A stretch of 64,000 nucleotides of DNA, from the NCBI RefSeq assembly GCF_004010195.1, contig NC_057749.1:16644564-16708563 (forward strand), in the 5' to 3' direction. The notes under the pieces are model-generated. The model was not told where the DNA came from. It did not search any database and was given only the letters and a program-made list of their open reading frames with translations. The stretch is from Chiloscyllium plagiosum. Lineage: Eukaryota. The stretch's first letter is position 1. Each line of letters opens with the position of its first letter. The position numbers and the translations under genes were made by a program. Of this stretch, positions 1-58,800 are shown piece by piece.

Positions 1-435
1 GATAGGTCAGGGAGTGTGCAATAGGTCATCTCCTTCCCCACTGACCTATTGTACTCTATGCTACTCTCTCCCCACCCCCACCCTCCTCTAGCTTATCTCT
101 CCACGCTTCAGGCTCTCTGCCTTTATTCCTGATGAAGGGCTTTTGCCCGAAACATCGATTTTGCCTGTCCTCGGATGCTGCCTGAATTGCTGTGCTCTTC
201 CAGCACCACTGATCCACATTCTCAGGGTAGTCCACAGATGCTCTTGCTGGACCGGAATCAGCCAGTGCCTGGGTTTAACAAGCATTCAGCACATCTTTGT
301 AAGAATATTTAACTGGTGAAGTCCAAGTTCATCCCCTGCGGTTGGAGGGTTCCCAGTCGGAAGATAAGACACTCCTCCTCCGACCGTCGGGTTGTTGTGG
401 TTTGGCGGTGGATGAGTCCAATGACCTGCACATCT
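1..435. mobile_element. PLE family A remnants (tail with hammerhead motif at 129-156, plus inverted fragments)
   Basis: Shares the tail sequence of 58428-58635 and, inverted, the GIY-YIG 3' region of 8751-9354. Confidence 0.75.
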
Positions 436-28800: not shown

Positions 28801-31800
28801 ACACTTACACCAACAAAATTTACCCATTAAAGAATTACAAGCTAATTTCTATCACCCGCGGGTTATTTAATATTAGTAATTTTCGTGCATTCATTCTCTT
28901 GAGCTGCAGCAACATCATACCTTGGTGCCAACAGAGTTGACCTCGTCCCCATAGGACTGGTGAGAAATATAGCCAAGTCTCCACGCCGGTTATATGATAG
29001 TGTAATCCTTGCCTGCACATGCTCTAAGGAGTGGATAAAATTTGAACTTCCAAGGCATGCATCAACCCTTTTCCGAATCTCCAATCGGTTACCAATATCC
29101 CTGAAGAGATAAGTTGAACACCAGAACTGTAGAAATCCCTGAACTCTGAATTACATTAAGACAGTATCAGAATACCAATTCAAATAATCTATCAGCATGC
29201 AGAATTAAATTATAATGTGGGGTCACAGTTTTAGGATACAGGATAGCAGATTTAAAACAGATGACGATATAGTACTTCTCTTAAAAGGAGGTGAATCTGT
29301 GAAATGCACGAACCCAGATTGAGTAAAATTAAGGAAATAGATAGATTTTTAGTTAGTAATAGATTAAATGATTATGGAGTGCAGGCAGAAAGTGGAATTA
29401 AGGCCAAAAATGATATCAGTCATAACCGTATCAAATGGGAGAGCAAGTTTAAGGGGCTGAATAGACTACTCCTGCTCCTCATTCTTATGTGTTTGTTAAG
29501 TCAATTGGAAACAAGGGTCTCCTGGGATGAGAGATTTATTGCAGTGCAAGTTCCAAATTGAATCTTGTACTTTTCAGCTTAGCCTGGCAGGTAGAACTCC
29601 TGCCTTCAAACCAAGTTGTTTAGGTTGCAAGGTCCGCCCAAGGACTTGAGCAAAGAACCTCGGCTATCAATACAACAATCGCACATTTATCGGAGATGTC
29701 AGCCTTCAGATGAGCTGATAGATATTCCACCTGCCTATTCTTGTGGTTCAGTTAAACATTAAGGTCTCCAAATACACTTTGAAGAACAATACATGACCTA
29801 ATTCCCATCAACTTTTCTCAAGTACTGTAAGAAACAGATTAGTTTGACATACATGCATAGCCATGTGCAGCCAGGCTTAAGAAACTCACATACATGAATG
29901 TTTTGCAACATTTGAGAAATGTGCTGGGGGAATTCAAAAAAGGCTTTTCAGTTATTGCATTGAGTGCTCATCAGGATACAATATTTTTATTTTCGGCTCT
30001 GCAAGTAGGTATCAGTCATCAGTCTGCATGGTGAAATTATAGTTCACAGGATAGACGTGGAAGAGAAAATGCAAAGTACAAACACAAGTGGAAAGCACAT
30101 CAGAAAGTATACCGGCCAATAAGAATGTGCCCAAGCACTAAGTTTTGAGATTAAGAATTTTGCACAGCAAGGTTGTTGCAAACAAACAAAGACAAATAGC
30201 TGGAGAAACTCAGCAGGGATGGCAGCATCTGTGGAGAGAAACAGTTAACATTTTGGGCGCTCCTCCACTCCAAATAACTCAAAAATGTTAATTGTTTTTT
30301 CTCCATGGATGCTGCCAGACCTGAGTTTCTCCAGCAATTTCTGTTTGTTTCAGATCTCCAGCATCCGCAATTGTGTTTCATTTTAGGATGGTTTTATTTC
30401 ATTCACTCATGAGATGTGGACTTCGCTGGCCAGGCCAGTATTTATTGACTCTCCCGGGTTGCAGTGAACTGCTTTCCTGAACTGTTTCAGTGTGTTCAGT
30501 GGGTAGACCCACCTGGCAGGTAGACAGGGAATTTCAAGATTTTTACCCAGAGCTTAAAAATGTGTTGCTGGACGAGCGCAGGAGGTCAGGCAGTATCAAA
30601 GGAGAAGGAGAATCGACGTTTTGGGCATAAGCCCTTCTTCAGGACTTCTTCCTGACTTCTTCCTTCTTCCTGAAGAAGGGCTTATGCCCGAAACATCGAT
30701 TCTCCTTCTCCTTTGATACTGCCTGGCTAGGAGAAAGTGAGGACTGCAGATGCTGGAGATCAGAACTTAAAAATGTGTTGCTGGAAAAGCGCAGCAGGTC
30801 AGGCAGCATGAAAGGAGAAGGAGAATCAACGCTTCAGGCATAAGCCCTTCTTCAGGACCTCTTCCTGACTTCTTCCTTCTCCTTTCATGCTGCCTGACCT
30901 GCTGCGCTTTTCCAGCAACACATTTTTAAGTTCTGATCTCCAGCATCTGCAGTCCTCTCTTTCTCCTCGTTGACTTTAACCTACTGCGAATTCTCTTGCA
31001 AAGATTTTTACCCAGTGACAGTGAAAGAATGGCAATATATTTCCAAGTCAGGATTGTGAGTAGCTTGGAGAGGAACTTGCAGGTGATGGTGTTGCCATAT
31101 ATGTTTTGTCCTTGTCCTTTTAGATGGAAGTGGTTATGGATTTGAAAGGTGATGTTCTAGGATCTTTGGTGAATTTCTGCAATGTATCTTGTCAATAGTA
31201 CACACTGTTGCCACTGAGCTTCAGTAATGTAGGGAGTGGATGCGTGCGACTGTGGTGCCAATGTAATAGAGTCTTCAGCTCAAGGATAAATAGCATATAC
31301 AGATTATAGGTTTTTGATTAAGTCAGAATATTAGCATGTGTAAATTCTAAGAAAGTAATTGATAAAATATACAAGCACAAACATTTCCATGCAACATGAA
31401 GTTTCATAAATTCCCCAAATTTTTCTGAAACTCCCTGGCATGTGATTACTTTTGTTCAAACCACAACTAGACTGCAGAAGCTAACAGGCTCGAGGCAACC
31501 CTGATATCTGACAGTCAGCTCTTAAGAGAGTTTAAAGTTGAAGAATTTGCAGCAATATCAGATAAAGCTGAAGATTATCATCTCCATTATAATATAATGC
31601 AATTAACTTCACTCTCAAGTTACGCTGCATTGCTCGAGTTGTTTATTTTTTTTCTGTAGAACGTGGGCACTGCTGGCAAGACCCAGCAATTGTTGCCCAG
31701 TCCTAGTTGTTTGTGAACTGATTGCCCTTGAAATGGCTTACAAAGAGTCTACAAAGAGTCAACCACATTGCCGTGGATCTGAAATCGCATGTAAGTCAGG

Positions 31801-34800
31801 TCAGTAAGGACAACAGATTTCTTGCCCTAAAGGACAGATGGGTTTTTCCAAACTTGCTTGTGGTTACTTTGTCAACTTACGCTAGCTTTTATTTCCAATT
31901 TTTCAAACAATTTAAATTCAAATTTTATCACCTACCATACTAGACTTGAACCCATTCCAGAGGCTATGGAATACTGGTACGGTTACATTAGTGCTATGAC
32001 ACCATCTCTCCAGTCAGTACAAAATCAAAATGCATGTACCATATTCAGGCAAGTTGTTTCAAACACACACATCCTATTTCTAAATCCGCACAATAAACTC
32101 ATCATCACATTCCCATGACACTAAAATTGTCAAGGGATATACCTACATTATTGATTTCTTGTTTAATAGACATTATGCTGCAAATAATAGAACTTACTGT
32201 TTCACCTATCAAGATTTGAACAGGAGCTTACCATGATACAATGAAAATTGGATTAATACATTTTTAGTGAAAATGATACTGATTAGATTATGTTATCATA
32301 GACTGGATAACACGTCAGGCAGAACTCTACAGGGACAAAAATCCATCAAGGAGTTACTGTATATAACATTTCCATCTAGAAGTAGCACTGAGATTTTACC
32401 TCATAAATAACTTGACTTATGAAGTTATTTTGCTAATTTAAATATTAATACACTACTATTTTAAGACTGAACAATTTTAAATATGGCTGCATTTATGATA
32501 TCACACAAGAATCAGGTTGAGATAAGCTTAAGCCAGGGAACTATAGACCAGTGAGCCTGACCTCAGTGGTGGGCATGTTGTTGGAGGGAATCTTAAGGGA
32601 CAGGCTGTACATGTATTTGGAAAGGCAAGGACTGATTCGGGATAGTCAACATGGCTTTGTGCGTGGGAAATCATGTCTCACAAACTTGATTGAGTTTTTT
32701 GAAGAAGTAACAAAGAAGATTGATGAGGGCAGAGCNNNNNNNNNNNNNNNNNNNNNNNNNNNNNNNNNNNNNNNNNNNNNNNNNNNNNNNNNNNNNNNNN
32801 NNNNNNNNNNNNNNNNNNNNNNNNNNNNNNNNNNNNNNNNNNNNNNNNNNNNNNNNNNNNNNNNNNNNNNNNNNNNNNNNNNNNNNNNNNNNNNNNNNNN
32901 NNNNNNNNNNNNNNNNNNNNNNNNNNNNNNNNNNNNNNNNNNNNNNNNNNNNNNNNNNNNNNNNNNNNNNNNNNNNNNNNNNNNNNNNNNNNNNNNNNCT
33001 TAATGGTAAGGTCCTAGGGAGTGTTGCTGAACAAAGAGACCTTGGAGTGCAGGTTCATAGCTCCTTGAAAGTGGAGCAGCAGGTAAGATAGGATAGTGAA
33101 GGCGGCGTTTGGTATGCTTTCCTTTATTGGTCAGAGTATTGAGTACAGGAGTTGGGAGGTCAAGTTGCAGCTGTACAGGACATTGGTTAGGCCACTGTTG
33201 GAATATTGCGTGCAATTCTGGTCTCCTTCCTTTTGGAAGGATGTTGTGAAACTTGAAAGGGTTCAGAAAAGATTTACAAGGATGTTGCCAGGGTTGGAGG
33301 ATCTGAGCTACAGGGAGAGGGTGAGCAGGCTGGGGCTGTTTTCCCTGGAGCATCGGCGGCTGAGGGGTGACCTTATAGAGGTTTACAAAATTATGAGGGG
33401 CATGGATAGGATAAATAGGCAAAGTCCCCTGGGGTCGGGGAGCCCAGAACTAGAGGGCACAGATTTAAGGGCGAGAGGGGAAAGATATAAAAGGGACCTA
33501 AGGGGCAACTTTTCCACGCAGAGGATGGTATGTGTATGGAATGAGCTGCCAGAGGATGTGGTGGAGGCTGGTACAATTGCAACATTTAAGAGTCATTTGT
33601 ACGGGTATATGAATAGGAAGGGTTGGGAGGGATATGGGCGGGGTGCTGGCAGGTGGGACTAGATTGGGTTGGGATATCTTGCCGGCATGGACGGGTTGGA
33701 CCGAAGGGTCTGTTTCCATGCTGTACATCTCGATGACTCTAAGTGGAATAAAATGTAGGCTTTTAGGTGAAGTGGGCTGAGAGTCTGATAAATAATTGGA
33801 CTGGAGTGCACATGAATCATTCTATCACTATTTATACATTGTTTCCATTATAAACAGTCTGTTTAAACCGGTTACCTATAAATGAACTTAAAACAATCAA
33901 AGCTAGAAAACAAAAATTAGCAGGAATACTAGCCAATTACCCTTTCCAAATTGGAGACCTCAGATTAGATTAGATTCCCTACAGCATTGAGACATGCCCT
34001 TTGGCCCAACAAGTCCATATTGATCCTCTGAACAGTAACCCACTCAGACTCATTTCCCTCTGACTAATGCACCTAACACCACGGGCAATTTAGCATGGTC
34101 AATTCACCTGACCTGCACATCTTTGGACTGTGGGAGGAAATTGGAGCACCCGGTGGAAACCCATGTAGACACGGGGAGAATGTGCAAACTCCACACAAAC
34201 AGTTGCCAGAGACTGGAATTGAACCTGGGTCCCCGGGCGCTGAGGCAGTAGTGCTAACCACTGAGTCATTGTGCTGCCGTAATGTTTTGTTTCACCCCTG
34301 CTGCTGCCTGTCTAATATCAGACCACTTATCACACCTGAGTTTCGTGGTTTGCTTACTGTGGCTGAGTGCTTTAGAAGCAATGCCACTAAGCCTTTACAT
34401 TAATGCAACAAAGTGCAAGGATTATATTGAAATACTTTAGACAATAATATAAAATAAGCAATGTGAGGTAGTAAAACAGTAAAAATATTTTTGGGAAGTG
34501 TGTCTCAATAGACAATAACAAACTGGATATTAAAATAATTGCTTTGGTTTTCCTTTTCTTTAATCTTTCTGAATAAAGGTAATTTGGCAATAACACACAA
34601 TAATTGTATCAGATCAATTGCAAGGGTCTTCCATTTCATATAGGCAGTAGACAATTGTCCCTTCATCAGAAGCAGATTATTAGCCAAGTCTCTCTCTCTC
34701 TCTCACACAGCTCTCAAACATCAATCTTTAACTCTGCTATTAAGCTACTACCGACACTGCTGTGTAACTGACCTGTCAGATCCCCTATCACAAAAAAACT

Positions 34801-37800: not shown

Positions 37801-40800
37801 CCAATATGACCTAGTCCCATTTTCTAGCATTTTGCCCATATCCTTCTAAACCCCTCCTATTCATATACCCCATCCAGATGTCTTTTAAATATTGCAATTG
37901 TACCCACCTCCACCACTTCCTCAGACAGCTCATTCCATAAATGCACCACACTCTGCTTGAAATAAGTCCTTTTTAAATCTTGCTCCTCTCACCTTAACCC
38001 CACGCCCTCTAGTTTTGGACTCGCCCACTCTTGGAAAAAGACCTTGGTTATTCATCCTATTGATGCCACTCATGATTTGGCAAATATCTAACAGAGATGG
38101 AAATGTGTTGCTGGAAAAGCGCAGCAGGTCAGGCAGCATCCAGGGAACAGGAGAATCGACGTTTCGGGCATTAGCCCTTCTTCAGGAATATCTAACAGCC
38201 TCCAATACTTCAGGGAGAAAAGCCCCAATCTATTCAATCTCTCCCTATAACTCAAACCCTCCAGTCAGAGCAAAATCCTTGTAAATCTTTTCTGCACCCT
38301 CTATTCTTTAACAACATCCTTCCTACAGAAGGGCGGCCAGAACTATACACAGTATTCTGAAAGCGGCCAAATCAATGTCTTGTACAGCTGCAACATGACA
38401 TCCCAACTTCTATATGCAAATATCCTGATAATAAAGGATATTAAATCATGGAAAGAGTTTTCTACCTCTGGTTTGATTTCTAAGAATTTTAGGGTGGGGG
38501 GCAGTATCAAGAGGGTTCAGAGAAAATGTCAGGAATCGGATTCATGGCATGATGGGCATCCCAACATTTTTCGGAAGTCGGATACAAACAAGAATTGGCC
38601 TGAACTGATGCTTTCTTGGTCATAAAGCTTGTCAACACACTTAGGTTAGGCTGAAGTGCAGAATGATTAATTGAATGATATCAATAGAAGTACACCCCAG
38701 CAGAATTCAAGCATCTCTTGGGGAGATGGAAGAGAATTAAGGGAGAGGGTAATGGAATGAGACTAAAATCTGACCAACACAGCTCATATTTTAACAATCA
38801 AATCCTATGATGCAATTTTGACAAACAAATAGCTACAACTTTGTTGCTTTTTTTTTTCAAAAGTAGTTCAACTACCAGTTGGCACACAAATGTTACACGA
38901 GTAGCTACATGGTTGATCACATGATAATGCATACTTTGCTTCCAGTGCAAGGGCAATGATTCCAGCAGCAAGAGGAGCAGATGCAGAAGTTCCAGTATGT
39001 GATTCTGTACATTTCTGTCTGAGATCAGTGGTAACCTAAAGAGAAATAAAAGGAACAGATGTAATGAGGTTGCAGCCATTTCAACAAGGCAGTAAAACTG
39101 GCACCAAGAGCTGGAACATCAGAAAACACAGTCAATACAAAACAGGTTTATCCACATTAGCTCCAATAAAGGGTCACAATCTGAACCATTCAACAGTCTC
39201 TACTTGAGACCAGATGTTTTCTGATCTGATCACAAATGAGTGACGCAGCATTAACACCTGGTTTATAGTGTTTTAAATGTGCCAACATTCAAGTCTATCC
39301 AGATAATTCTAACAAAGGTAGTTTGTACTGAAGTCTGTCAGAAATTAGCTGGTATTAACGAACAATGCACAACAGGCCTACGCAGGATGGGGCATAGAGA
39401 GATCAAAGTTTTAAAAGCTGTGGAATTTGAATAGGAAAGCACCACTGTGATTTTGTCTCATTTAGAAGAAACTAGCGTTATAATGTGTACATGAGAATTA
39501 TGGAATAGATTACTAGTAAAGGTGGTGATAGAGAATCATGGCAGAGTTTTTTTAAAAAATCTGTTGGCCTGTTAAAAAGGTTCATTCGTGTCAGCTGCAG
39601 AATAATTAAAAAAAAACAAAATTAGAATGGATAGATCACAAACCTGAAAGACCTTTGCATAAAACATGACTGTGTGCAAACTTGTCCATAATTTACCCTT
39701 TCAAATGTAGCTGTTTCCATATTTGTATTTGCTTCTTTTTCTCATGTCCAACTGAGACAAACTAATGTAGGAGGAATTACCCAAACCTTCAGGCAAAAAC
39801 TCAAACCAAAACAGCTGGGCTTAAACATCAGTGCAAGCTTGTCTTCAGCTGTGCTTTCTAATCTTGCTTTCCCAGATTGTTATACATGCCCTTTAATATT
39901 TCTAAGAGAGAAGTAACCTCTTAAAAATCGTGACTGAATCAGATTAATAGTCACTAGGATAAAGTAAAACCTGAATGAGAATAATAATTCAGGCACTACT
40001 GTTGCTAGATATTTACCCAATTAAAGAGCTTTCAGTGCCACATTTTGAAATTGGGTGCAGATTATTCCAATATTGTTCTGTCAATAACAAAGCAGGCATA
40101 CAAAGATTAGGACTCTGGACAACAAAACTTTTATCATAACAGCTACTTACGATCTGTTTTTCAAATTGACCTCCACTACTATATGTAGTGGCAAGTGTTG
40201 AAGAGCATGCCTCGCTGTACCAAGGTACATTCCCATTCTGAGTTGTACTGCTGATTGAAAGGGTGTAGATACTATTTGTATATCCATCACAGTTACAGCT
40301 GTCATGTTCCCGGCCACCATTCCCAGAAGCCCACACAAATATTGAGCCAAGACGACCACGTCCCTGCAAATATGTTTTTCAAAACAAGTTAGCATGCTCA
40401 CCTTGTGAAGCCACTGAACAAACCATTATTGCATAATTGTATTACAAAATGGTCTCTGCTCACAATTATAAATCTGCATTTTACCCAAGCCCCTTGCATA
40501 ATAAGAGACAGAGACACAGGTATTTTGGCCGAATAAGCTTATGAAGAAATGAATATTCAATTCTGCACTTATCTTGAACATACAGGCATTATTTACTTTA
40601 CCTGCGAAATGCCTTTAAAAAACGCTGCCTGTGCTAATTTAGCAGGACCATCCACTGTCTTTCCATCATCCTCTGGACCCCAACTAGCACTGTAGATGTC
40701 AATATGTTGAGGGTACATACTAAGGGACTGAGCTTCCACAGCATCAGTCACCTCTCCATCTAGCATCCGCACACCTATAGAAACCAAGAAAATGTACAAC

Positions 40801-43800: not shown

Positions 43801-46800
43801 AACTAGGTATGAATTCCTCTGTTACTTAGGAAATTGTACCAAGAAATCAGTACACAATCGAATCTTCAACTACCAGTGACAAAAACTTGCAACCAACCAT
43901 TGGTAATTCAACATTATTAAAATAATCCTTCCAAGCAAACTTTGGTTGGGTGTTTTTCATCATGGCAGAAATGGAAGTACAAGAATTTTAGTTACAATAG
44001 TAATTCATTAATGCCAAATCGTAACATTCTTCTGAATATGTACCAACAAGATTCAAGACAAATCATGAGCCTGCTTCCAGAAGTTTGTTTTTCTGCATCA
44101 GAAATGCCCTCTTGTCCTCAGTATTTTTAAGCTGTTATTAAGCACCAGATGATTAGGTCTTCAGCACAGACTCAAAGATAAATTACTTTTTTTCTCCATA
44201 CAGTCACCATTAGGGTTCTTAAGTCCAGGGATACGGATTGTGAGGAGTAAGGTACGGTGAACAGGAAGACACATTATCCATTAGTTGATGAGTCAATAAC
44301 CAGTGGCATAGATTTAAGATAAGAAAGCCAACAGGAGATTTGAGGATAATTTTTTTCACCCAGAGGATGGTGGTAATCTGGATCTCATGCCTGAAAGGAT
44401 GATTAAATCAGAAACATTCATAACATTTAAGCAGTATTTAGATATTCACGTGTTTACCACAGGAAAACAGGATTTGTGTGGATAGATCTTTGTTGTCTTA
44501 GACTGGGTGAGCTGAACGGCTATCTTCTGTACTGTAAACATCTGAGCTATGAGGTAGATGAACATTTTTTTATATAGCATAAAAACAGCCATTTAGTCCA
44601 AATTTACATAATTTGTCAAAAATTACAAGTTAGTCCTACTTCCCTGCTTTCCTCATCATTGCAATTTTATCTCCCTTGAATATTTAATCTTACTTTTAAG
44701 TTATCAAATCTGCATCCACCTGTCAATAGATGATGGTGTGGAGAACCCAGCTCATGCAGGGAGACAAGTCCTACTCCAAGGCTTGGTGGCCAAGTACGTA
44801 CATTTATATCATGGCGAAATAGGTTGAGGAAGATCTTGCAAATGGTTCCAACACACAACAATGGCAAGCAATATGATGAGAGATTCCAGGCTCCAAATAA
44901 GCAAATAAAAACCTCTACCATTGCAGAGGTACCATTGTATGTAAAGCTCAGTTGGCTAGAAAGCAAGTCTTGAAAATGTATTGCTGGAAAAGCGCAGGTC
45001 AGGCAGCATCCAGGGAACAGGAGAATCGACGTTTCGGGCATAAGCCCTTCTTCAGGAATTTTCTTTCCTGAAGAAGGACTTATGCCCGAAACGTCGATTC
45101 TCCTGTTCCCGGGATGCTGTATGACCTGCTGCGCTTTTCCAGCAACACATTTTCAGCTCTGATCTCCAGCATCTGCAGACCTCACTTTTTCCTCCTAGAA
45201 AGCAAGTCTTATAAATCAGATTGACACCAACAACACAGGGATTGATCCCAGAGGAAGATTTGGGAGCTGCTTCCTTGCCATACGTATGGTAGACGTATCA
45301 GCAGGTAGATCGGTATTTCAGGCAGATGACTCATGCTGGTAACCCAGCCAGACGGTAGGATGTTTTTGCTAATGTCACCTCTGGTTCTTTTGCCAATCAA
45401 CTTAAACTTGTATGCTTTGGTTATTGACTGTTCAGCCACTAGAAAAAGCTTCCCTTTATTGGTCCAACTAAACTATTCATGATTTTCTATCATATTTCCA
45501 AAATTGCTTTGAAATTTTGTCTGGAGTTTAACAGAGTACGTCAATAAAGTCCTCACAGGAAAGCATTTGGAAATCAATTACACATTGAGACATGGTCACC
45601 GGAGGTTAAAATCTTCAAAAACCCTTTAATTCACCATGGTCTTTCTCTGAAGTGACCTACCGATTATCATTCAGCTGTGTGTAACGGGGCTGAGGATCAG
45701 GATCATTACCATTTACGTCGTAACTGGCACCTGGATCCTGGAATAGGAAGAAAAACACTGATTAAGTTCCCTTTTTCCTATGCATCACTAAGAATAAAAA
45801 ACAAACACTTCAATCTTGGTTGATTCCTGCTACGGCACTGACAAGATTCCTGAGAACCCAATGACGTTAGCTGAGTTGAGAACAGTGAAAGGTATTCAAG
45901 TCAGGCATTGTATTTAAACCAATTTATTTTTTGTATCTTCATCCACCAGCTCCATAAGTCAAGAACACATCATTCAAGCTTTTCATGTTAACAGGGAGGG
46001 GAAAATCAAAAGGTAGAGAAGAGGGAGAGTATTTTTATTGAACATCAGCTAATTTGTTTCAACTTGAAACTGAACATTAATTCTAAAATTGACATACGTG
46101 ATTCCAGATAGACTGGGTCTTATCCAGTTTGCTGAGTTGCATGGACGTCAGCAAAGAATGCCACCCTGGGTGTTAGTCTGTTAAATGTCAAGAGGATTCG
46201 GATGTTAGACTTTTGGACAGCTAGGTTTGGGCTTGTGTGTTGATGAGTCACCTAATAGTTTAATGTGAACCAGTTAAAATCAGCTTTCATCACGTGGGAC
46301 TCAAACTTTTTCCACCTGGTCATTGTGGCAGAAAGGACACAATTCCAGTTTATCCTGAAGACCATTTCACTTGGGAATTAAGATTTTTTTCTTTAATCAT
46401 AGGTACAAGGTTGAGCAATTGTTAGATGGGTCCCCAGCAGCAACCCAAGAATGAAGCAAACAGATCTACTTACATAATTAGCTGATAGGTCTGGATGGTT
46501 CTTCTCAATTCCGTCATCCAGAATAGAAACTACAACACCCTTTCCTGTATAACCCTGCTTCCAGGCTTCTTTTACATTCAAGTCACGATGATCCGTGTTA
46601 TGCTAGACAACAAACAACCACAGCAGTGAGCTGCCCTGATTTACTTTAAACAAATTGAAATACTATTAACTCTGACTGCACGTCAACATGGTAAAGTATC
46701 AAGTCTTTTTTGCTTTCACCTTGCCACTTTGCTACTTTTGTTCCCATTTATTCCTAAGAGTGCACAGATACCTTTAGACAGGTCATTAGGACATATCACA

Positions 46801-49800
46801 GATTAAGGTGCTGTATAGGTGCAATGGATTTATTTAGAAGATAAACACTTGTACAGTGTGCCGCTTTATTATCTAACTGAAGTGGTACAGCAGGTTAATA
46901 CCTCAACACATTAAATATGTGCAAACATGCAATTAAGTGCACAACATTTACTATCTTGACAGATCAGTGAATATATTGTTAACCACAGTGCATAAATCTG
47001 GCTCACATGTGCAGAGACATTTTATAGGCACAATGACTTGCAAACATCACTTGTTATTAATTATTCACCTCATGCAATTCATGAACTTCAATAAATTATA
47101 TTCTTTAATTGAAGAACGTTAAAAAGTTAGAGTCCTAGAGCTGTGCAGCATGGAAACAGACGCTTCAGCCCAACATTTCCATGCCAACTAGATATCCCAA
47201 ATTAATCTAGTCTCATTTGCCAGTATTTGGCCCAAATCCCTCTAAATCCCTCCAATTCATAAACTCATTCAGATGCCTGTTAAATATTGTTATTATACCA
47301 GTCTCCACCATTTCCTCTGGCAGTTCATTCCATACATTCACCACCCTCTGCATGAAAATGTTTCCCTTTAGGTCCCTTTTAAATCTTTCCCTATTCCCTC
47401 TAGTTTTGGATGACCTCACCCCAGGGAAAAGACCTTGTCTATTTACCGCATCCATGCTCCTCATGATTTTTTAAGTCATGAAAATAAATTTCTGTCAAAG
47501 CAACTCAGGAGTTAAAAAAGAAAAAGACCCTTCTTTGGTGCCCAGGATGCTTGTGTTGGGTTTGCCTAAAAAAGTACCGTTGTACAAAGATGTACTATGC
47601 ACAGTACAGGCTGACAAGTTTAAAAGCACAGTCCTAACCAAGTGTTTTCACACTAGGTCTGTATGAACAGGAATACTATTCACCGGTTCAATATTTGTAG
47701 AAATCTTTTTATAATACACATTAAATATGGGAAGGGGACAAACTAGCCCATATATGCACCCAAAATTTACCTATGAACAGTAATAACTTAAGAAGAGAAA
47801 GGGGCAGATGCTGGTTTTATAGGATTCCAAAAACTCTCAAAATTAATCAATTAGTGGGCGGCATGGTGGCACAATGGTTAGCACTGCTGCCTCCCAGCGT
47901 CAGAGACCCAGGTTCAATTCCCACCTCAGGCAACTGTGTGTGGAGTTTGCAGTGTCTCCCAGTGTCTGCGTGGGTTTCCTCCGGGTGTTCCGGTTTCCTC
48001 CCACAGTTCAAAAATGTGCAGGTTAGGTGAATTGGCCATGCTAAATTGCCCGTAGTGCTAGGTGCATTAGTCAGAGGGAAATGGGTCTGGGTGGGTTGTT
48101 CTTCGAAGGGTCGGTTGTTCTTCGAAGGATCGGTGTGGACTTGTTGGGCCGAACGGACTGTTTCCACACTGTAAGTAATCTAATCTAATGTAATTCAGGA
48201 TAAAACACGATGCTTTAAAATGCTGTGCTACTTCTGTGTTCTGCTCTTGAAACAAACAGGAGAAGCCAATGCAGCATCTGGAGGGTCTGCCACATTCAAA
48301 TAAATCAAGGCTGCTCTATATCAACCTGCATGCTTTAGAGTTAAAACCCTCAACATACTTATCTAAAAAAAAATTAATCTCAGCTTTAAAATTTCCAAGT
48401 GACAATATGTACCTATGTTCTGGAGTTCTGGGAGGGAAAAACCATTTCAGATATGCATAAAATATTGTGCAGGGGGGTGAGCCTGACATCATTCCTGAAT
48501 GACCCAGTCCTAATTTTAGCAATAAAACAGTTAATGGAAAGTTTAATAGATAAAGGATATTTTTCCCAAACAAAATATGTCCCACAAAATCTCTTCACAG
48601 GGCTTATTCTCTTGATTTGAGGCTTATATTAAATTCACATACCAAGATTTTCCTTCACTTAAATGAAATGAAAATAAAATTTTCTCAAACATTTCAAAAC
48701 ATCCTTCTCTAACATCTTGGTCCACAGTTCCTCATGCCTTGTAGACCTTTTTTTCCTTTACAAGTCTCATGCCATTCCCTTACTGCACCACATCATTCCC
48801 AATATAGGAAATCTTCATTATAGAGACTGAAAAACCTCTGGGGAGATTGATGGAGCAGAATCTGTACCTTTCTGTACTTGCAAAACACAAAGAATTGCTT
48901 ACCAGGTACCACTGGATTGGGAATTTGGGGTCATTTGGTTCAGTGTAAGTGTCTCTCTTTTTCCTTTTCTTAATTACTTGCTGTTCCAGCCATGTGACCT
49001 GTTTGCAAGAATAAAGTCTTTGAGGAAAAGAAACTTTTTACCTAGAAGGGCATTACAAAGCAATTTTGTTTAACCAGATTAATTGATACAATTAGTGTAA
49101 AAGTTCAAGTAGAAGGAAATAGTGGCAGACTTTACAATCTGTTCGAGGTACTTGACCCAGATTTGACTAATTTCCAAATGAATTTTTGTTTAAGTAAATG
49201 GCATAACAAAGGATCAAGAGTTGCTTACACAATGGAAATGTAGAATTTCTAATGCCCTCCCTCCAAAAATTACTAAAGGCTACGTTATGTTTAGCTAGAA
49301 ACACAACTTTAGCTAAGTCAATTATATCACAATCACAACTACCAGCTGTGCATGAAGGCTATGACTGAGCAGTTTACCTGAGGTCAAATCACAAAAGGGA
49401 CTTCATATTACTGCAGTATAAATCCTGCTGATTAATACCAGTGACCTTTCCTCATTCTATATTGCACGATCAATGGATTGAGGAAGGTAACAAATTTTCT
49501 GGTTGCGTTTTGTTCAGGGCTTTGCGCTTGACAAGTCACCATAGCCCTACCAGAGCATAGAGCTGTTCTCTCAGACAGTGAAGACTGGTGATGGAGTTGA
49601 ACCCGAGGGGTGAGGTTGAGAAAGAGGTACCATCATGTTAACCTCAGCCAGTGCAGGACTTGAACATGTGCTATCAATGTCACTCTGCATCACAAATCAG
49701 CTGTCTAGTCAACTGATCTAACCTTATCCCCCCACCCTCCCCACCTCCGGCTCTTGACAGGTAGCAGGAAGATTGAATGTGTACAAGCTTTAACATCCTT

Positions 49801-52800
49801 GCCAAAAGAACAATTGTGTCAAAAGTTATTGCTCGCTTACTGGAAGTGCTTGTCCTTACTAGAAAAATGTTGATTAGCAGCATACAATCATTTATAAAAG
49901 GTAATAGAAATTGTAGTTTAGAGTACTGAACTTGAGCATTGCTGGTCACAAGCTTGTCATTTCTGTGTAAGAGTCTAACCTGCAATGTGTCAACTATCCT
50001 CTCTTACAGACAAGATGTTTGTTTTAGTTCAGAACTTTTTTTTCTCTCCTCTATCTGCACCAAGTCACGCATAGTATTTCCAATCTTGGTAAACCATTAC
50101 ACTTTTTAATTCAGGCATCACCAAGGAGAGAAATACAAAACTATTTTGGCTCCAAATGTTCCTGCAAATGGAATATCAGTGGATGGTTATGTCTACAAGT
50201 GAGTCCTTTACCAACATGAATAGATAACAAAGGGCAGATCAGCTGAGAACATTGCAATGTAATATACGACTTTAGTCAATGAAAACCATTCACAGTATTT
50301 CAAAACCAAAATAAAAAAATTTGCAAAGATGATCTGAAGTCTCCTTCAGAAGTACTTCACAATTTGGCTGGAATGTAAACTTGCAAAGAAATCAGATTAT
50401 TTCATTAGTTTGCCATCATACGGACCAAAAAAATTCAAAAGGAGTTGAGGATTGACTGACTGACTGCTTCAGCTTGCATTATGAAAATAACACAGTGTCC
50501 GCTCACAAAGTGTCTACAATCCTGTTCACCACTTGGGATGTCTCTTTCACACAAAGTTTTGAGGATTGGCAATATTCTTAGATATAAAAGATCTTCAGGT
50601 GTTTGATCAATAAGGGATTGACTGCCCCACAATACCTGCAACTGATTACTGTGGAGGTCATGTAGGAGGAAAGGACAGGCTCCAACAACATTTGGGAGTA
50701 GATGAGGCATTGATGGATTCTAAGCTCTGTGGATTCTCATCCTTTCATGTTCACATCAATGGAGCTGTGAAACGTAACTGGAGATTTTCTGAGACATGAG
50801 CACCAACACTACTTATTCCTGAAGTTCTTTGAGAATTTCACTCCGACAGAGTAAATGTTGTTCTGTGTCATGCAATAGAAGTCACAGGTGCGCGCGCACG
50901 CTCAGTGACAGATATTTGGCTTGGTGGTCCTTCGTCTGGGCAGGGAAGGAGGCCAGCAGAACAGTAATAGCTACTGCAGAAGAGAACTTGAGGACAAAAC
51001 GATGTCTTTCCAATCTATGAGTATAGGACATACACCTCCCTTTAAATCCCTCATTAAAAGGTTTACAAAATTATGAGGGGCATGGATAGGATATATAGAC
51101 AAAGTCTTTTCCCTGGGTGGGGGAGTCCAGAACTTGAGGGCATAGGGTGAGAGGGGAAAGGGACCTAATGGGCAATGTTTTCACGCAGAGGGCGGTACGT
51201 ATATGGAAAGAGCTGCCAGAGGAAGTGGCGGAGGCTGGTACAATTGCAACATTTAAAAGGCTTCTGGATGGGTATATGAATAGGAAGGGTTTGGAGGGAT
51301 ATGGGTCAGGGGCTGGCAGATGGGACTAGATTGGGTTGGGATATCTGGTCAGCATGGATGGGTTGGAACAAATGGTCTGTTTCCATGCTGTACATCTCTA
51401 TGACTCTATAATTGGTGGCATGTCCTCCCTCCATCCTGCAACTTGATGCCACATGTCAGCCAGCACACCACACACCTACAAAAAGGGGTAATGATGAACT
51501 TCATGGCCTGTATCTACCTTCAAGAACAGGAGACCCTGAGATACAGGAAATGCATCAATGTCCTAAATTACCTTGATAAGAAGTTGCACATCTCATACTC
51601 ATGGGCAGCACTGCTTTTGGAGCAACCAAAACAGAGGGGTCTGAACAAGATTTGCTGACGAAATGCAGAAGTGAAAGAGAGGGATCAGGAGTACAAAACA
51701 ACCAGTCTATCCAACCCTTGAAGCACCAACTGCCCCAAATGTTAGAGTCTAGTCATCACACACTGTAGTTATCAGTCAACTCAAACGATTGAACGAGTAC
51801 ACAATAATATTATCAAGGATAATAACGGATTGCCTTAGGTGAAGTTGACTCCACCTATTTTTCTATTCAAGTGGCAAATCTGCACATCTGGTTTAATACC
51901 TGCAAGCAGTCTCAAATTATGGTAAGACAGCAGTTAGTACCATAATTGTGCATTAAATTCACAGTTTTACACAGGCACCTCATGAGCACATTTAGCATGT
52001 TTTTATTCTTGGGTTAAAATTCCTTGGAGATTGAATTGCCCCAGCTTCACTCAGGTTTTATCCAATAGACCAGGCACTTAAAATCTAACATACAAGCATC
52101 AGTCCTCCAAGATCATCTTGGTGTCTCCTTGAACTGGAAGATTCTTGTGGTAACTTGCGGTGGAAAAAAAAAGAGCACCATTGGAAAAAAGTTGCATTGA
52201 CTTTCTTTTCTATGTTAATATTTTTATAACTAATATTACTGCAGATAGTTTTAAAAAGGGTTATTTGTTCATCATTTATATATAATAATTTGAATGTGAG
52301 CATAACAGGAATAGTTAGTAAGTTTGCTGATGACACCAAAATTGGAGATGTAGCAAACAGCAAAGGAGGTTACTTCAGAATACAACGGGATCTTGATCAG
52401 ATGGGTCAATGGGCTGAGGAGTGGTAAATGGAGTTTAATTTAGATAAATGAGAGGTGCTGCATTTTAGGAAAGCAAATCTTAGCAGCACTTATACACTTA
52501 ATGGTCAGGTCCTAAGGAGTGTTGGTGAACAAAGAGACCTTGGAGTGCAAGTTCATAGCTCCATGAAAGTAGAGTCGCAGATTGGTAGGATAGTGAAGAC
52601 GGCGTTTGGTATGCTTTCCAGTATTGGTTCAAGTATCGAGTAAGGGAGTTGGGAGGTCATGTTGCGGTTGTACAGGACATTGATTAGGCCACTTTTGGAG
52701 TATTGCGTGCAATTCTGGTCTCCTTCCTAGCGGAAGGATGTTGTGAAACTTGAAAGGGTTCAGAAAAGATTTACAAGTGTGTCGCCAGGATTGGAGGACT

Positions 52801-55800
52801 TGAGCTATAGGGAGAGGCTGAATAGACTGGGGCTGTTTTCCCTGGAGTGTAAGAGGCTGAGGGGTCACCTTATGGAGATTTATAAAATCACGAGGGGCAT
52901 GGATAGGATAAATAGACAATATCTTTTCACTGGGGTGGAGTCGTCCAGAAATAGAGGGCATAGGTTTAGGGTGAGAGGGGAAGGATATAAGAGAGACCCA
53001 AGGGGCAACTTTTTCATGCAGAGGGTGATGAGTGTAAGGAATGAGCTGCCAGAGGAAGTGGTGGAGGCTAGTACAATTGCAACATTTAAAAGGCATCTGG
53101 ATAGGTATAAGAAGAGGAAGGGTTTGAAGAGATATGGGCCTAGTGCTGGCAAATGAGACTAGATTGGATTGGGACATCTAGTCGGCATGGGCGAGTTGCA
53201 CCGAAAGGTCTGTTTCCGTGCTGTACATCTCTGTGGCTCTGACTGGCTGAGATTATTGGAAAGGAGGTGTATTATTGAAACTTCTAAGAATACAAAGGAT
53301 TGGCAACATCCACATTGGAGAAATTGGAGTGAAACAATTCCTCAGCCTGAACTCTCATGGAAGTTATGTGCGTGTGTAAGCAGCTGTTTGCATTACCCCA
53401 ATGATCATAATTAAGCAACCTTTACACCACACATACTACTAAAATAGACAGCATTTCATCAGCTGGAAAAGCAGTTGCAATTACACCTTTCCTCAATACA
53501 GAACTGAAAGAAAGAGGGAGAGGTCAGCACCTGTGTCAAACCACAGCTGCAGGTTGCACCAATTGAGTAAGAAAATTAGCTCATCTGCCCCTGATTTGCT
53601 TAATTAAAAGGAATTAAGATCATTTGCTTAATTAAAAAAATACACAATGCTGCAAAGACTGAAGGTTATAGAATATTCAGTAAACACAAACTACTTTTAT
53701 ATTTAACAAACTGTGGAGCAAAAACAATGCAACTGGCATGACTTGCCTCTTTGCGTGGGAATATTTCACAAATCCCAGGTTGAGTGTTTTCAAATGTTTT
53801 CTATGTATTGTTTGTCTTTGCCAGCTGCATCCTGTTGGTTTACTCCAAAGGAAATAAACCCATTGCCTTTGTTATTTAATCAAAGTTCAACCCAAGTCCG
53901 TGCTGTGCTTCCTCTATTAATTTATTAAACGCCCTGCTTAATTGAATTATAATACTCGGAAATTTTTTTGAAAATGCAAAACAAAGCTAAGAAGTCACAG
54001 AAGCTTCTCAAAGTACCATCGCTTTTTAGGATACCACTTCAAAATATTCCCTTCCAGTACCTCTTGCAAGTGGAGATTTTTAAGTGTTGACAGACTATCC
54101 CTTTAAGGGACAAGTCACATTCAGTGAGATGGTGTGTAGTGGGGTGCCTCACTATTTCCTACTCACCTCTAATTGAGTAAATGTACCAATGACGTTATCA
54201 GCTGACAATGGTTAACCCACCAGAGACCAAGAACTGTACCTGGCAACTTCCAAATCCTCTAGGCTGTTTTAGACAAGTTTTTTTTAATATAAATTATTTT
54301 ACACTGAACGTGGATTCACTAGCTATGTCAGCATTTCATTTACAACTGGAAATGGTGCTTTAGCATCACCTTTCTGAATCACCAGTCCATTTGGTAGAGG
54401 AATGCCCATATTTTGGTTAGAAAGTGAGTTCTAGAATTTTGACCCAGGAATACTAAAGGAACACTAATATGTTTCCAAGTCAGGACGGTGCTTTCCTTGA
54501 AGAGGAACTTGCAAGTAGTTGCATAGCCAATATCTGCTGGCTTTATCCTTCTTGGTGCAGCAGATTGCAGGTTTGGAAGGTGGTATCAAAAGAATCTTGG
54601 TGAGTTGCTACTGTGCATCTTGTAAATGGTAGACACTATTGCCATTGTGCATCAGTGGTAGAGGGAGAAAATGTTGATGGTGGAGGACAAAGTGCCAATC
54701 AAGTGCATCAGTAGAAAATGAGGACGGCAGGTGCTTCAGAATCAGAGTCGAAAGAGTGGCACTGGAAAAGCAAAGCATGTCAGGCAGCATTCAAAGAGCA
54801 GCACTGCTGACGTTTCAGGCATAAGCCCATCATCAAGAATGTGGAGGGGTAAGGAGGATGAGAAATAAATATGGAGATGGGGTGGGCGTGTGTGGAAGGC
54901 AATAGGTGGATGCAGGAGGGAGGTAATTGTGATAGGTTAGTGGGGAGGGTGCAGCGGATAGGTGGGAGGAAGATGGACAGGTAGGACAGGTGAAGAGAGT
55001 GGTTGGGGGGGGGGGGGCAAGATTTGGAAACTGGTGAGATTGATGCTGCTGTCGTGTTGTTGAAGGGTCCCAAGGCGGAAGATGAATAATTTTTCCTCCA
55101 GTTGGTGAGTGGCTTTGATTTGTTGTTGGAGGCAGCTCAGGACGTGCATGCCCTTGGGTAGTGGGATGGGGGAGTTGAAGTGGTCAGCCACAGGGTGGTG
55201 GGGTTGTGTGGTGCATGTCCCCCAGAGATGTTCCCTGAAACACTCCATGAGTTGTCGTCCTGTCTCACCAATGTAGAGGAGGCCACATATCAAGAGCAAC
55301 AGATGCAGTAGATGAGGTGGGTTGGTGTGCAGGAAAATCTCTGCCGAAGTGAAAAGATCCTTTGGGGCTCTGGACGGAAGTGAGGGGGAAAACCAAGTGG
55401 ATTGCTTTGTGCTGGATGGTGGAGAGTTTCTTGAGTGTTGTTGGAGCTGCACCCATACAAACAAATGGACAGTATTCCATCACACTTTTGACTTATGCCT
55501 TGTAGATGAAGATTTTGAGAAGTCAGGAGGAGAACTCAGACGACTGACTGTGTGGAGTTTGCACGTTCTCCCCGTGTCTGCGTGGGTTTCCTCCGGGGGC
55601 TCCGGTTTCCTCCCACAGTCCAAAGATGTGCAAGTCAGGTGAATTGGCCATGCTAAATTGCCCGTAGTGTTAGGTAAAGGGGTAAATGTAGGGGTATGGG
55701 TGGGTTACGCTTCGGCGGGTCGGTGTGGACTTGTTGGGCCGAAGGGCCTGTTTCCACACTAAGTAATCTAATCTAATCTAATTCCCAGCTTCTGACCTGT

Positions 55801-58800
55801 TATTGTAAACACATCTATATGGCTGTGCCAGTTCAGTTTCTGATTAGAATGCTGATACTTGGGATTAATTGACTTTTTAATGGCACTACCATTAAAAGGC
55901 TAATGGTTAGATTCTCTTGATGGAGGTGATGATTGCCTGGCACCTGTCAGCAAAAATCTGCCTAAGCCTGAACCTTGTCCAGGTTTTACTGCATTTTAAC
56001 ACAGACCGCTTTAGTGTTTGTGAAGGTACAACTGATGAAGGGCATTATGCAACCACCTACAAACATCCCCAACTTCTGATTTTATGATGTAAGGAAGGTA
56101 ATTGCTGAATTAGCTGAAGACAGTTAAGCTGAGAACGTTACCTTTGAGGAATTCATGTAGCAACATGCTGGGATTGAGATTATTGGCCTCAGAAATGACA
56201 CATTTTCCTTTGAGATGGATAGGATTTCAACCAGTAGGCAGTTTCTCCCAGCAATTCCAGATTTATTAAGACTCCTCAATGCCAAACTCATTCAAGTGCC
56301 GCTTTTAGGCAAGGGCAGTCACTCTCACCTTAGTCCTTTGGTCCATGTTTTAGTAAGGCTGGATTAAGATCAGGTGCTTGGTGGGCCTGGCAGAACCCAA
56401 CTTAGTGTCAATGCAATTATTCCCTTGCCACTGTTTGATTCGCTCAATGGCATGGTCGAAAGTCCCTTCCCATTGCTTGACTGACCATTAAACAGTACAC
56501 TGATGGGGAGATAATTGGTTTGATTGGATTTGTCCTGTTTACATACATAGGACATAGTTGGGCAATTTTCCACATAGCCAGGGAGATGCTGGTGTTAATG
56601 CTGTACTGAAACAACTTGGCTAGGGGCATGCCTGAAGAAGGGCTCATGCCCGAAATGTCGATTCTCCTGCTCCTTGGATGCTGCCTGACCTGCTGCGCTT
56701 TTCCAGAAACACATTTTTCAGCTCTGATCTCCAGCATCTGCAGTCCTCACTTTCTCCTAGGGGCATGACCAATTCTGAGATGCAGGTCTTCAGTCTTATT
56801 GCCCAAATAAGGCAGGGCTCAAAATCTTATTCACATACTAAATTGTTGCGAACCTTCAAAAGAAGATTCTCCATAAATCCTCAATACAGCACATCTAAGA
56901 AAAAGGTACTATACATGGCTAAACTTGCAAAGTGGTTATTTCTCTCAAAAGGGATAAAATGTTTACCTACATTCAATCTGAACATCCCAGAATAATCTTT
57001 CGAAGACGGTTATGCGGTTGAACACTATATGTTCAACACTCCCAAGATACAACTGGTTAAATGGCTGCTTTCAATGCGAGGAGAAAGTGAGGACTGCAGA
57101 TGCTGGAGATCAGAGCTGAAAATGTGTTGCTGGAAAAGTGCAGCAGGTCAGGCAGCATCCAAGGAACAGGAGAGTCGACGTTTCGGGCATAAGCCCTTCT
57201 TCAGGAATGAGGAAAGTGTGTCCAGCAGGCTAAGATAAAAGGTAGGGAGGAGGGACTTGGGGGAGGGGCGTTGGAAATGCGATAGGTGGAAGGAGGTCAA
57301 GGTGAGGGTGATAGGCCGGAGTGGGCTGGGAGTGGAGAGGCCAGGAAGAAGACTGCAGGTTAGGAAGGTGGTGCTGAGTCCGAGGGATTTGACTGAGACA
57401 AGATGGGGGGAGAGGAAATGACGAAACTGGAGAAATCTGAGTTCATCCCTTGTGGTTGGAGGGTTCCTAGGCGGAAGATGAGGCGCTCTTCCTCCAGCCG
57501 TNNNNNNNNNNNNNNNNNNNNNNNNNNNNNNNNNNNNNNNNNNNNNNNNNNNNNNNNNNNNNNNNNNNNNNNNNNNNNNNNNNNNNNNNNNNNNNNNNNN
57601 NNNNNNNNNNNNNNNNNNNNNNNNNNNNNNNNNNNNNNNNNNNNNNNNNNNNNNNNNNNNNNNNNNNNNNNNNNNNNNNNNNNNNNNNNNNNNNNNNNNN
57701 NNNNNNNNNNNNNNNNNNNNNNNNCTCCGGCCTATCACCCTCACCTTGATCTCCTTCCACCTATCGCATTTCCAACGGCCCTCCCCCAAGTCCCTCCTCC
57801 CTACCTTTTATCTTAGCCTGCTGGACACACTTTCTTCATTCCTGAAGAAGGGCTTATGCCCGAAACGTCGATTCTCCTGTTCCTTGGATGCTGCCTGACC
57901 TGCTGCGCTTTTCCAGCAACACATTTTCAGCTCTGCTTTGAATGCGAGCCAAGCAGAGAGTACTAGAATTTACAACTCTGCTCAAGCAGTTCTATACCCA
58001 AGATTTGAACTGCCAGCCTGCATTTCAAATTAAATTGTACATGAAATGGACTGATGTCAGAAAAAGCGTGTTAAGCCTGCAGATATTGCATACAAGTCCA
58101 CAAGCTTTGATCAGAAACTTAAATGCACAAGCAGAATTCAGATTCAGTGTTCACAATTAGTCCAGTACTGTTAAAAAAAACAGAAGTTGGAAGAAATGCA
58201 CTTTGAAGACTACATTATCACCTTGAAAGCTCAGTGTATAACAACTGGTGCTACTAAAATAGAAGTTCCAAGATTCTCTTCTGCTTCTCAATGGAATCTG
58301 AGGAATTAGCAAGGAGTGGAATCAGCACAGGAGTGGAATCTGAGCTTCTTGTTTGTCTGCACTCCTGCACATACAATCTTGGTCCCACCCAAAAGAAACA
58401 AACAAGCTCAGTCGGTTCAGCTCATATTAGGTAAAAACAATGACTGCAGATGCTGGAAACCAGATTCTGGATCAGTGGTGCTGGAAGAACACAGCAGTTC
58501 AGGCATCTTCCGAGGAGCAGTAAAATCGACGTTTTGGGCAAAAGCCCTTCATCAGGAGGGCTTTTGCCCGAAACGTCGATTTTACTGCTCCTCGAATGCT
58601 GCCTGAACTGCTGTGTTCTTCCAGCACCACTAATCCAGCTCATATATTCCCAAGCTGAATTTTGTTTTTCTCTATAACTGACTTCAGGTTCTGAATGACT
58701 GTTAGCAGGTCTCAGACACCAAAACCAGTCTGGCAATTAGAGCTAGTAAATCCAGTTCAAGGCACTAAAAAATTAGGCTTCTGAAACAAACAATCGGACC

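Follow-up and report, generated by a model that had tools for sequence, protein, structure and literature searches.

Hammerhead-bearing insertions in a proprotein convertase gene of Chiloscyllium plagiosum as probable abortive products of Penelope-like elements

What kind of mobile sequence leaves short insertions that carry a hammerhead ribozyme motif and are each flanked by their own target-site duplication (TSD)? The question was raised by a 64,000-nt stretch of Chiloscyllium plagiosum DNA (RefSeq assembly GCF_004010195.1, contig NC_057749.1, positions 16,644,564 to 16,708,563, forward strand), hereafter the window, in which six such insertions lie within a proprotein convertase gene. A preliminary description had related them to the 3' tail of a Penelope-like element (PLE) and had offered two origins, a retrozyme-like non-autonomous family or stereotyped abortive PLE insertions. 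We concluded, with a probability of about 0.85, that the insertions were dead-on-arrival products of autonomous, hammerhead-bearing PLEs that encode a reverse transcriptase (RT) with, at the C-terminus, a GIY-YIG endonuclease (EN), and that the mini copies probably do not propagate themselves. The second origin was supported, in that the arms were the 3' end of an element ending in GIY-YIG and their 5' ends were piled up (59/88 sampled events; exact matches falling from 46,486 to 15,859). The features read directly were the homology of the arms to the 3' end of the element, the TSDs, the two kinds of 3' end, the long/short pairing, the 5' pile-up, the copy numbers, and the absence of tandems.

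Six insertions and their parent element

All six insertions were found by direct reading of the sequence, at coordinates that the preliminary description had given correctly to within 1-3 nt, and each had its own TSD, read at all six as a direct duplication of 10-16 bp. Positions within a copy of the tail (an arm) are given in arm coordinates, in which the C of CUGAAGA is 0, the predicted ribozyme cut falls after C27, +28 is the expected 5' end of a cleaved RNA, and the 3' end is either short (about +90) or tailed (+124). The insertions and their arms were as follows.

30551-31000: composite insertion of four arms; 15-bp TSD aagatttttacccag at 30536-30550 and 31001-31015; stuttered filler at 30645-30666
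About 30551-30644, minus strand: first arm, short 3' end, reaching -2
About 30667-30726, plus strand: second arm
About 30730-30857, minus strand: third arm, tailed end, reaching -2
About 30874-31000, plus strand: fourth arm, running from about +33 to a point 34 nt past the usual tail end
38095-38187, minus strand: single arm with a complete hammerhead core, starting at -2 (up to -4 counting the TSD overlap), short 3' end; TSD atatctaacag, 11 bp
44972-45194: head-to-head dimer with a 5-nt filler; TSD ctagaaagcaagtct(t), 15-16 bp
44972-45059, minus strand: its left arm, short end, reaching -4
45065-45194, plus strand: its right arm, from -3 to the tailed end
56631-56757, plus strand: single arm that starts at -1 and has the tailed end (+124); TSD taggggcatg, 10 bp
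57081-57935: long head-to-head dimer with a run of N at 57503-57725 between its arms; TSD ctttcaatgcgag / ctttgaatgcgag, 13 bp with 1 mismatch
57081-57502, minus strand: its left arm, tailed, with the last ~47 codons of the open reading frame (ORF) and the 3' untranslated region (UTR)
57726-57935, plus strand: its right arm, short end
58428-58632: head-to-head dimer of subfamily B; TSD cagctcatat, 10 bp
58428-58557, minus strand: its left arm, tailed end, reaching -2
58558-58632, plus strand: its right arm, from +8 to the short end

The description of each insertion as a single tail failed for four of the six, which were head-to-head inverted repeats of the tail. Three consisted of two arms each (44972-45194, 57081-57935, and 58428-58632), one held four arms within one TSD (30551-31000), and only 56631-56757 and 38095-38187 were single arms. 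All four window dimers paired a tailed end with a short end. Complementarity was 99% between 30729-30822 and 30874-30967 in the composite insertion, and 98% between the visible arms (422 and 210 nt) of 57081-57935. The insertion at 58428-58632 had been assigned to family A; it belonged instead to a second subfamily, B, with CTGATGA, the loop TTTT, and a different tail, like that at 122-222 of the window. The largest insertion had been said to include the GIY-YIG end, and its left arm did contain the last ~47 codons of the ORF, but the GIY-YIG-matching stretch (at about 8754-8852 in the longer copy of the window) lay outside it. The preliminary description had found no ORF in the five small insertions, and in none of the six did an ORF match a protein family. 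Frames that stay free of stops over a long distance, for example 44667-45152 on the minus strand, were rejected as fortuitous.

Many insertions, for example at the 3' junctions 56758 and 45195, were followed by TAG or TAGA, or the element ended in CTCC-TC, which suggested a target preference or a wobble of 1-2 nt in the start site. The only Rfam matches in 58508-58597, the perfect foldback of the subfamily B dimer, were to the microRNA precursor families mir-761 and mir-722 (E-values 4e-5 to 9e-5), with scores well under the gathering thresholds; they were an artefact of its shape that could mislead annotation.

The parent was sought through the longer copy in the window, which served as the reference for sequence upstream of the mini copies.

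8685-9353, plus strand: older, longer, 5'-truncated copy of family A type, with an ORF end that matches GIY-YIG and a 3' UTR of ~270 nt
9263-9296, plus strand: hammerhead of this copy, which has a short 3' end

The tails of the insertions matched the 3' end of this copy at 91-92% identity. Its ORF at 8685-9107 matched GIY-YIG with an E-value of 3e-4 and 21.5 bits (Pfam cut-off 22.6 bits), and the same domain was present in the protein-atlas feature neighbours of the ORF. Nine longer homologues were found, the named ones in sharks and skates; GIY-YIG lay near the C-terminus in all five that were scanned, and RVT_1 lay upstream of it in two of the five (P0002 and P0003), with the GIY-YIG match of P0003 over the cut-off at 23.2 bits. 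The order of these predicted domains, RT first and GIY-YIG at the C-terminus, is that of canonical endonuclease-bearing PLEs. Sequence searches of the PDB with the endonuclease ORF and neighbouring frames gave no informative match. No RT was found in the window's own copy at 8685-9353, which is 5'-truncated. The hammerhead lay in the terminal non-coding region, about 270 nt past the end of the ORF and about 90 nt before the 3' end.

Paired arms, two 3' ends, and a sharp 5' edge

The genome-wide figures given here are counts of exact pattern matches; a similarity search with the 65-nt tail was uninformative, its words being too common. A 47-mer of the tail had 26,515 exact matches and its control had 0. 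The hammerhead 21-mers of families A and B had 46,486 and 37,843 matches respectively, 84,329 together, and the sequence 95-297 nt upstream of the ribozyme gave 1,894 candidates. A sample was formed from the first 100 places listed by the 47-mer tail pattern, in position order along contig 1; since the listing runs in contig order, these places were unselected for 5' extent. Retrieval gave 90 loci with 96 distinct arms, which represented 88 events.

We found that 49 of the 88 events were compact inverted dimers, every one of them head-to-head. Among the 100 places there were 8 close pairs (within 200 nt), all minus/plus, with no plus/minus and no same-strand pair. The two 3' ends were 33 nt apart, with 70 of the 96 arms tailed and 22 short. 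One tailed and one short end were combined in 48 of the 49 dimers, two tailed ends in one, and two short ends in none; the short partner ended at +86 to +93 in 31/38. Both end types occurred among single mini arms (16 tailed versus 5 short), so an independent choice of end would have given many like pairs in the dimers. The complete arm of a dimer could be either the tailed or the short one, the other arm being of variable length.

Inverted repeats within TSDs, present in 4/6 window copies and 49/88 sampled events, would also be left by a foldback DNA transposon or a miniature inverted-repeat transposable element with terminal inverted repeats. Such an element would not account for a TSD length that varied from 10 to 16 bp, for unequal arms whose outer ends were two fixed points of one oriented sequence, for single-arm copies with a TSD (common, at about 20/88), or for arms that were the 3' end of an RT/EN element. 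The single-arm copies together with the variable TSDs refuted this reading.

The second regularity was at the 5' side. Random truncation gives a smooth length distribution, and the one observed was not smooth: the 5'-most end lay within -10 to +5 of the hammerhead start in 59/88 events, with a mode at -4 to -1, and 40 of the 96 arms ended at -6 to -1. In dimers, the further-reaching arm ended between -10 and +2 in 41/49 and beyond -10 in 0/49. Of the non-dimer events, 18/39 ended at -6 to +5 (17 by script, plus L030, which by eye starts at -4). Seventeen events reached further upstream (13 of 135-426 nt, one of a subfamily with other upstream sequence, and 3 running into N), and 12 were more deeply truncated or complex. 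In single arms with a clear TSD, the A of -4 was often common to the end of the TSD (L004, L021, L085, L046). The same drop was seen genome-wide, where family A gave 46,486 exact matches to -1, 29,770 to -4, and 15,859 to -7, and family B, whose upstream sequence differs from that of A, gave 37,843 to -1 and 13,299 to -7. Thus 34% (A) and 35% (B) of the arms at -1 continued to -7. The upstream profile beyond -7 was taken from the sample and not from pattern counts. A second preferred 5' end is hinted at by four of the 13 longer copies (L026, L033, L078, L023), whose starts fell near -145 in a span of about 15 nt.

RNA reads were taken from one raw-read library (single-cell poly(A)) and aligned on a long copy; a second run gave 0 aligned reads. 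Seventy-three reads fitted from -4 on with unrelated sequence before it, and depth rose 6- to 9-fold at this point; matching right-hand boundaries were seen close to the short end and at the tailed one. The reads came from both strands and continued into unrelated flanks, and looked like passive transcription of embedded copies and not a start site.

The arrangement of the copies also bore on the first origin that had been offered, a retrozyme-like non-autonomous family whose tandem transcripts would cleave themselves at GUC and become circles that the PLE enzyme retrotransposes. The units were short, very numerous, and equipped with a minimal type I hammerhead, the terminal regions of PLEs are the reported source of animal non-long-terminal-repeat (non-LTR) retrozymes (bioRxiv 10.64898/2026.07.22.740005), and a few arms started at the predicted cleavage product, +28 (L080, L088, L044). 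However, these cut-site starts amounted to only 3/96 arms. Most copies retained the whole ribozyme upstream of the cut site, which argues that the templates were uncleaved. Same-strand pairs within 200 nt were found at 0/100 places versus 8 minus/plus pairs, and junctions of a tail end followed by a hammerhead start within 12 nt numbered 32 genome-wide, versus 46,486 hammerhead 21-mers. The sole copy of more than unit length, the TSD-flanked L086 (an extension of the tail, some 80 nt from further downstream in the element, then hammerhead and tail), had a junction unique in the genome, complex junctions in general were seen once or twice, and no permuted unit was found. A retrozyme-like family was therefore judged very improbable.

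The form of the dimers and the paired long and short 3' ends tied the insertions instead to the published mechanism of PLE insertion. The enzyme of the Anolis carolinensis Poseidon PLE (PAc) cuts and extends both strands in vitro (Frangieh et al. 2024, Mob DNA, PMC11167929). It begins reverse transcription at two adjacent internal sites 30-40 nt apart, which accounts for the optional tail. Insertion is normal with ribozyme mutants, the template is mainly uncleaved RNA, and the length of the product tracks the 5' end of the RNA (PMC11167929). On this reading, an arm in the shark genome is a target-primed reverse transcript of the element RNA's 3' module. Its synthesis starts at one of two adjacent internal sites, giving the short end (about +90) or the end with the 33-nt tail (+124), and mostly ends at -4 to -1, just after the minimal hammerhead has been copied. 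By analogy with PAc, both nicked target strands may prime cDNA on the 3' module, one start site per side, because of which about half of the events would be head-to-head dimers. The cDNA that first reaches the template end would jump to, or anneal with, the 3' end of the other cDNA and copy back. A template jump or microhomology, within or beside the hammerhead region, would in this way link the 3' ends of two same-sense cDNAs. The window structures are what the Anolis mechanism, carried over by analogy, would predict if copying usually ends right after the ribozyme.

The likeness to PAc comprised a hammerhead just upstream of the RNA module required by the enzyme, two start sites, use of both strands, and an uncleaved template, with the window family known from genomic footprints alone. 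There were also differences. The tailed/short pairing (48/49 dimers here) was not reported in vitro, where the start sites were alike between strands; the PAc ORF starts in helix II, whereas here the ATG of loop 2 opens only a 26-codon frame; and a sharp 5' edge at the ribozyme and copy numbers were not described for PAc. In all family A tails, as at 57855-57935 of the window, the loop-2 frame ended at a TGA stop at +92, at the short 3' end.

Why copying should end at the ribozyme was considered separately. The sequence at the 5' end, which we take to be initiator-like, is TCA(+1)TTCC in family A; family B has TTA(+1)TTCC. The edge may thus be the start of the template RNA, a short transcript from a start site at TCA(+1)TTCC in the 3' region, because product length follows the RNA end in vitro and the initiator-like sequence is present in both families; we put this at slightly less than even odds. 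It is also possible, and we hold this more tentatively, that the edge is a leaky boundary of reverse transcription and not an RNA 5' end, the telomerase-related enzyme stopping or switching template after copying the ribozyme because of a bound protein, the ribozyme fold, or an alternative hairpin (-12 to +9) centred on the edge. That the drop was alike in two families whose upstream sequences differ (34% and 35% continuing to -7) fits such a boundary, as do the predicted hairpin of family A (-12 to -4 with +1 to +9), a further cluster of arm ends at +8, the foot of helix II, and the finding that the ribozyme of the Anolis element is protein-assisted in vitro (PMC11167929). However, in vitro product length followed the RNA 5' end even with templates that started upstream of the ribozyme (PMC11167929), the alternative hairpin was by reading weak in family B, and a block would be expected at the 3' foot of a structure and not at its 5' edge. 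Other causes of the edge are unlikely.

The copies show hallmarks of short interspersed nuclear elements (SINEs), namely a defined 5' end, a uniform size, and a very high copy number, and the 5' end presumably fits an initiator-like motif (TCA(+1)TTCC / TTA(+1)TTCC), so a SINE-like, self-propagating mini-PLE or foldback derivative, with its own promoter and the PLE protein acting in trans, was also weighed. Two junctions pointed in the same direction: one simple dimer junction occurred 894 times, by recurrent formation or in a propagating lineage, and a complex junction was common to L018 and L020, 114 kb apart. Against this, complex junction fingerprints were found only once (L086) or twice (L018/L020) genome-wide. 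The three sampled copies of the 894-fold junction stood on at least two subfamily backgrounds (L003 and L028 versus L064 at +42, with differing tail variants), which favours repeated formation; we read this junction as arising repeatedly from cDNA ends that pair by two bases at the foot of helix II. A promoter upstream of -4 would not be carried by the mini copies, runs of four T at about +68 and +82 would end RNA polymerase III transcripts before the reverse-transcription start sites, and the RNA reads came from both strands and ran into the flanks. Self-propagation in this manner was judged improbable.

We tentatively entertain a more specific form of the abortive-PLE reading, in which the ~128-nt unit (-4 to +124) would be a natural minimal retrotransposition template with its 5' limit at helix I, the ribozyme marking the transcript start or the template boundary, and the tens of thousands of compact dimers would be in vivo footprints of a concerted two-strand reaction by a dimeric enzyme that uses each start site once, with the cDNA that is first at the RNA end jumping onto its partner. 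If this is true, the genome is a ready data set for the unsolved integration mechanism of PLEs.

Several observations weigh against an origin as abortive PLE products. Random 5' truncation alone gives no cliff, and one step of the mechanism therefore lacks an explanation. The count of exact matches to -14 (4,573) is confounded by subfamily variants, such as L048, whose upstream sequence differs. There was no pile-up of RNA 5' ends at -4 in the RNA library, which, being single-cell poly(A), cannot show starts. The 894-fold junction has the second possible meaning given above. No full-length master was seen: 3/3 long young copies entered N runs just upstream of the ORF end, as did 5 sampled loci, and 0/88 sampled events were full length. 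The GIY-YIG match of 8685-9107 fell just below the Pfam cut-off (21.5 versus 22.6 bits), and an RT-like fragment at 6872-7318 could not be assigned to this element. Finally, the Rfam hammerhead models, a check proposed in the preliminary description, gave no gathering-level match in the whole window, and none at E-values up to 10 in 56600-58700 or 57825-57885; this miss was expected, since the motif lacks a helix III hairpin.

The hammerhead motif and its relation to known systems

The motif was searched as CTGANGA-N-GGGC-NNNN-GCCC-GAAA with up to 2 mismatches, and 14 sites were found in the window versus 0 in 100 shuffles, in agreement with the core that had been noticed in the insertions. 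By reading, families A and B have CUGA(A/U)GA-A-GGGC-4 nt-GCCC-GAAAC-GUC, which fits the minimal hammerhead published for PLEs (PMC4209133): CUGANGA, an extra A, helix II GGGC/GCCC, GAAA, palindromic ACGU for helix III, C, and the predicted cut. This agrees with the published descriptor, which has one base between positions 9 and 10.1, the pair G10.1-C11.1, a helix II of at least 4 bp, a palindromic 15.2-16.2, and H17. The earlier caveat of a weak stem I was confirmed, helix I consisting only of C-G, U-A, a U-U mismatch, and A-U. Motif sites beyond the six insertions marked four more tails (at 129, 3511, 9263, and 54813), two of them from further lineages. Helix II of lineage C, GAGC/GCTC, is a compensatory change relative to GGGC/GCCC, and that of lineage D has a G-U pair. 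Common variants within the motif in 62 arms were at N7 and in loop 2, the remainder being CpG decay. Preferential conservation of the core was not found, since the tail blocks GGATGCTGCCTGA and TTCCAGCA were conserved to the same degree between lineages. The hammerhead is a predicted ribozyme that travels as part of the copied module, and there is no evidence here that its predicted cleavage is needed for the insertions.

Two further structures were predicted in the same region. Folding of L087 gave a long-range pairing of CUGCUGGA (3' UTR, -24 to -17) with UCCAGCAU (tail extension, +97 to +104) in long family A copies, and a conserved small hairpin, UGCUG-8 nt-CAGCA, was predicted within the tail, near the AC-rich stretch where copies end.

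In LINE-1 (a long interspersed nuclear element, LINE), twin priming leaves an inverted 5' segment when the second nicked strand also primes cDNA. The two segments there derive from different, neighbouring stretches of the RNA; here one and the same 3' module makes up both arms, each with an element-specific start site.

Cervera and de la Pena (2014, PMC4209133) found the minimal hammerheads of metazoan PLEs mostly as single motifs in truncated elements, or else as two motifs on opposite strands. The motif has in common with those described there CUGANGA, one additional base ahead of helix II, closure by a G-C pair, GAAA, palindromic ACGU for helix III, and a short helix I. About 4,000 motifs in the coelacanth and 9,000 in Xenopus are called remarkable in that paper; here there were 84,329 exact 21-mer matches. 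The opposite-strand pairs it gives are 100-700 bp apart, whereas most pairs here abut at the ribozyme. Craig et al. (2021, PMC8557442) describe PLE insertions as highly 5'-truncated, with an inverted truncated copy alongside, a tail of 30-40 bp that is often confined to one end, and trouble in assembly, and the window family has all four, including the tail at one end and the inverted truncated copy. Their account is of full units with pseudo-LTRs, whereas nearly all copies here are the last 90-130 nt. Animal non-LTR retrozymes (Cervera and de la Pena 2020, PMC7229834; Li et al. 2026, bioRxiv 10.64898/2026.07.22.740005) are tandem direct repeats that yield circular RNAs. The window family resembles them in being short and non-coding, in its type I hammerhead, and in its relation to PLE terminal regions; it differs in that its copies are single or inverted, with tandems at about 0.07% (32 versus 46,486). 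In the literature searched, no description was found of a 5' boundary at the ribozyme, or of such elements in sharks; Fig. S2 of PMC11167929 (genomic coverage) may bear on the former.

The objects are ordinary PLE insertion products of a kind already described; they are no new mobile element built on a ribozyme. The 5' fall-off at the hammerhead edge in two families and the near-invariable tailed/short pairing in dimers may be useful to those who study PLEs, as quantitative points that bear on the two-strand, two-start-site model from the 2024 in vitro work. For annotation, at least 84,000 exact hammerhead motifs, many in perfect hairpins in introns, trigger spurious microRNA-like and ribozyme calls. 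The hairpin copies also seem to break short-read assemblies. N runs of 117 to 2,213 nt interrupted long inverted dimers in their middle, or lay immediately upstream of the ORF end in young long copies (57503-57725 in the window; L010, L059, L075, L082, L087, and L091-L093 in the sample), and these may be assembly gaps caused by young palindromic repeats.

Other copies and repeats in the window

Three more tails were present in the window.

122-222, plus strand: subfamily B tail with its hammerhead at 129-152; the 3' UTR runs upstream to the window edge
3477-3600, plus strand: old tail of a third lineage (C), helix II GAGC/GCTC; CpGs of the cleavage site decayed
54710-54838, minus strand: old tail of a fourth lineage (D), core TTGATGA, helix II GGGC/GCCT

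The sequence past the usual tail end (L086 at 1338-1582, oriented; window 30968-31000) was itself repeated, with a 17-mer present in 669 copies, and this extension held an ATG in good context, possibly the start of the main ORF. In L022, a tail cut at +45 ran straight into coding sequence resembling another PLE's GIY-YIG motif region, and this copy looks like a template-switch chimera. Near-identical 31-mers of the tail occurred in sequencing runs labelled with four different organisms, none of the listed runs being of RNA; the family is therefore common to related species and nearly unchanged among them.

The RT of the element had been sought at 6085-7318, and this candidate was dropped: the RT-like frame at 6872-7318 weakly resembled the LINE-1 ORF2 RT (E-value 0.02), and genomic relatives of 6085-7318 were only 73-81% identical. 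An old fragment of LINE type thus lies immediately upstream of the PLE copy, of which it is no part.

The host gene encodes a proprotein convertase on the minus strand, with P-domain exons at 27051-27200 and 28902-29027. A second abundant repeat, with a unit of 0.3-0.7 kb and 76-95% identity, filled the introns that hold PLE tails (12054-12733, 21670-22370, 32999-33746, 51034-51413, and 52463-53246; inverted at 47125-47429 and 38196-38438). Another repeat ended in (TAATC)-like units, an ending typical of a LINE or SINE 3' end, at 23662-23822, 48012-48188, 55549-55778, and, inverted, 34022-34211.

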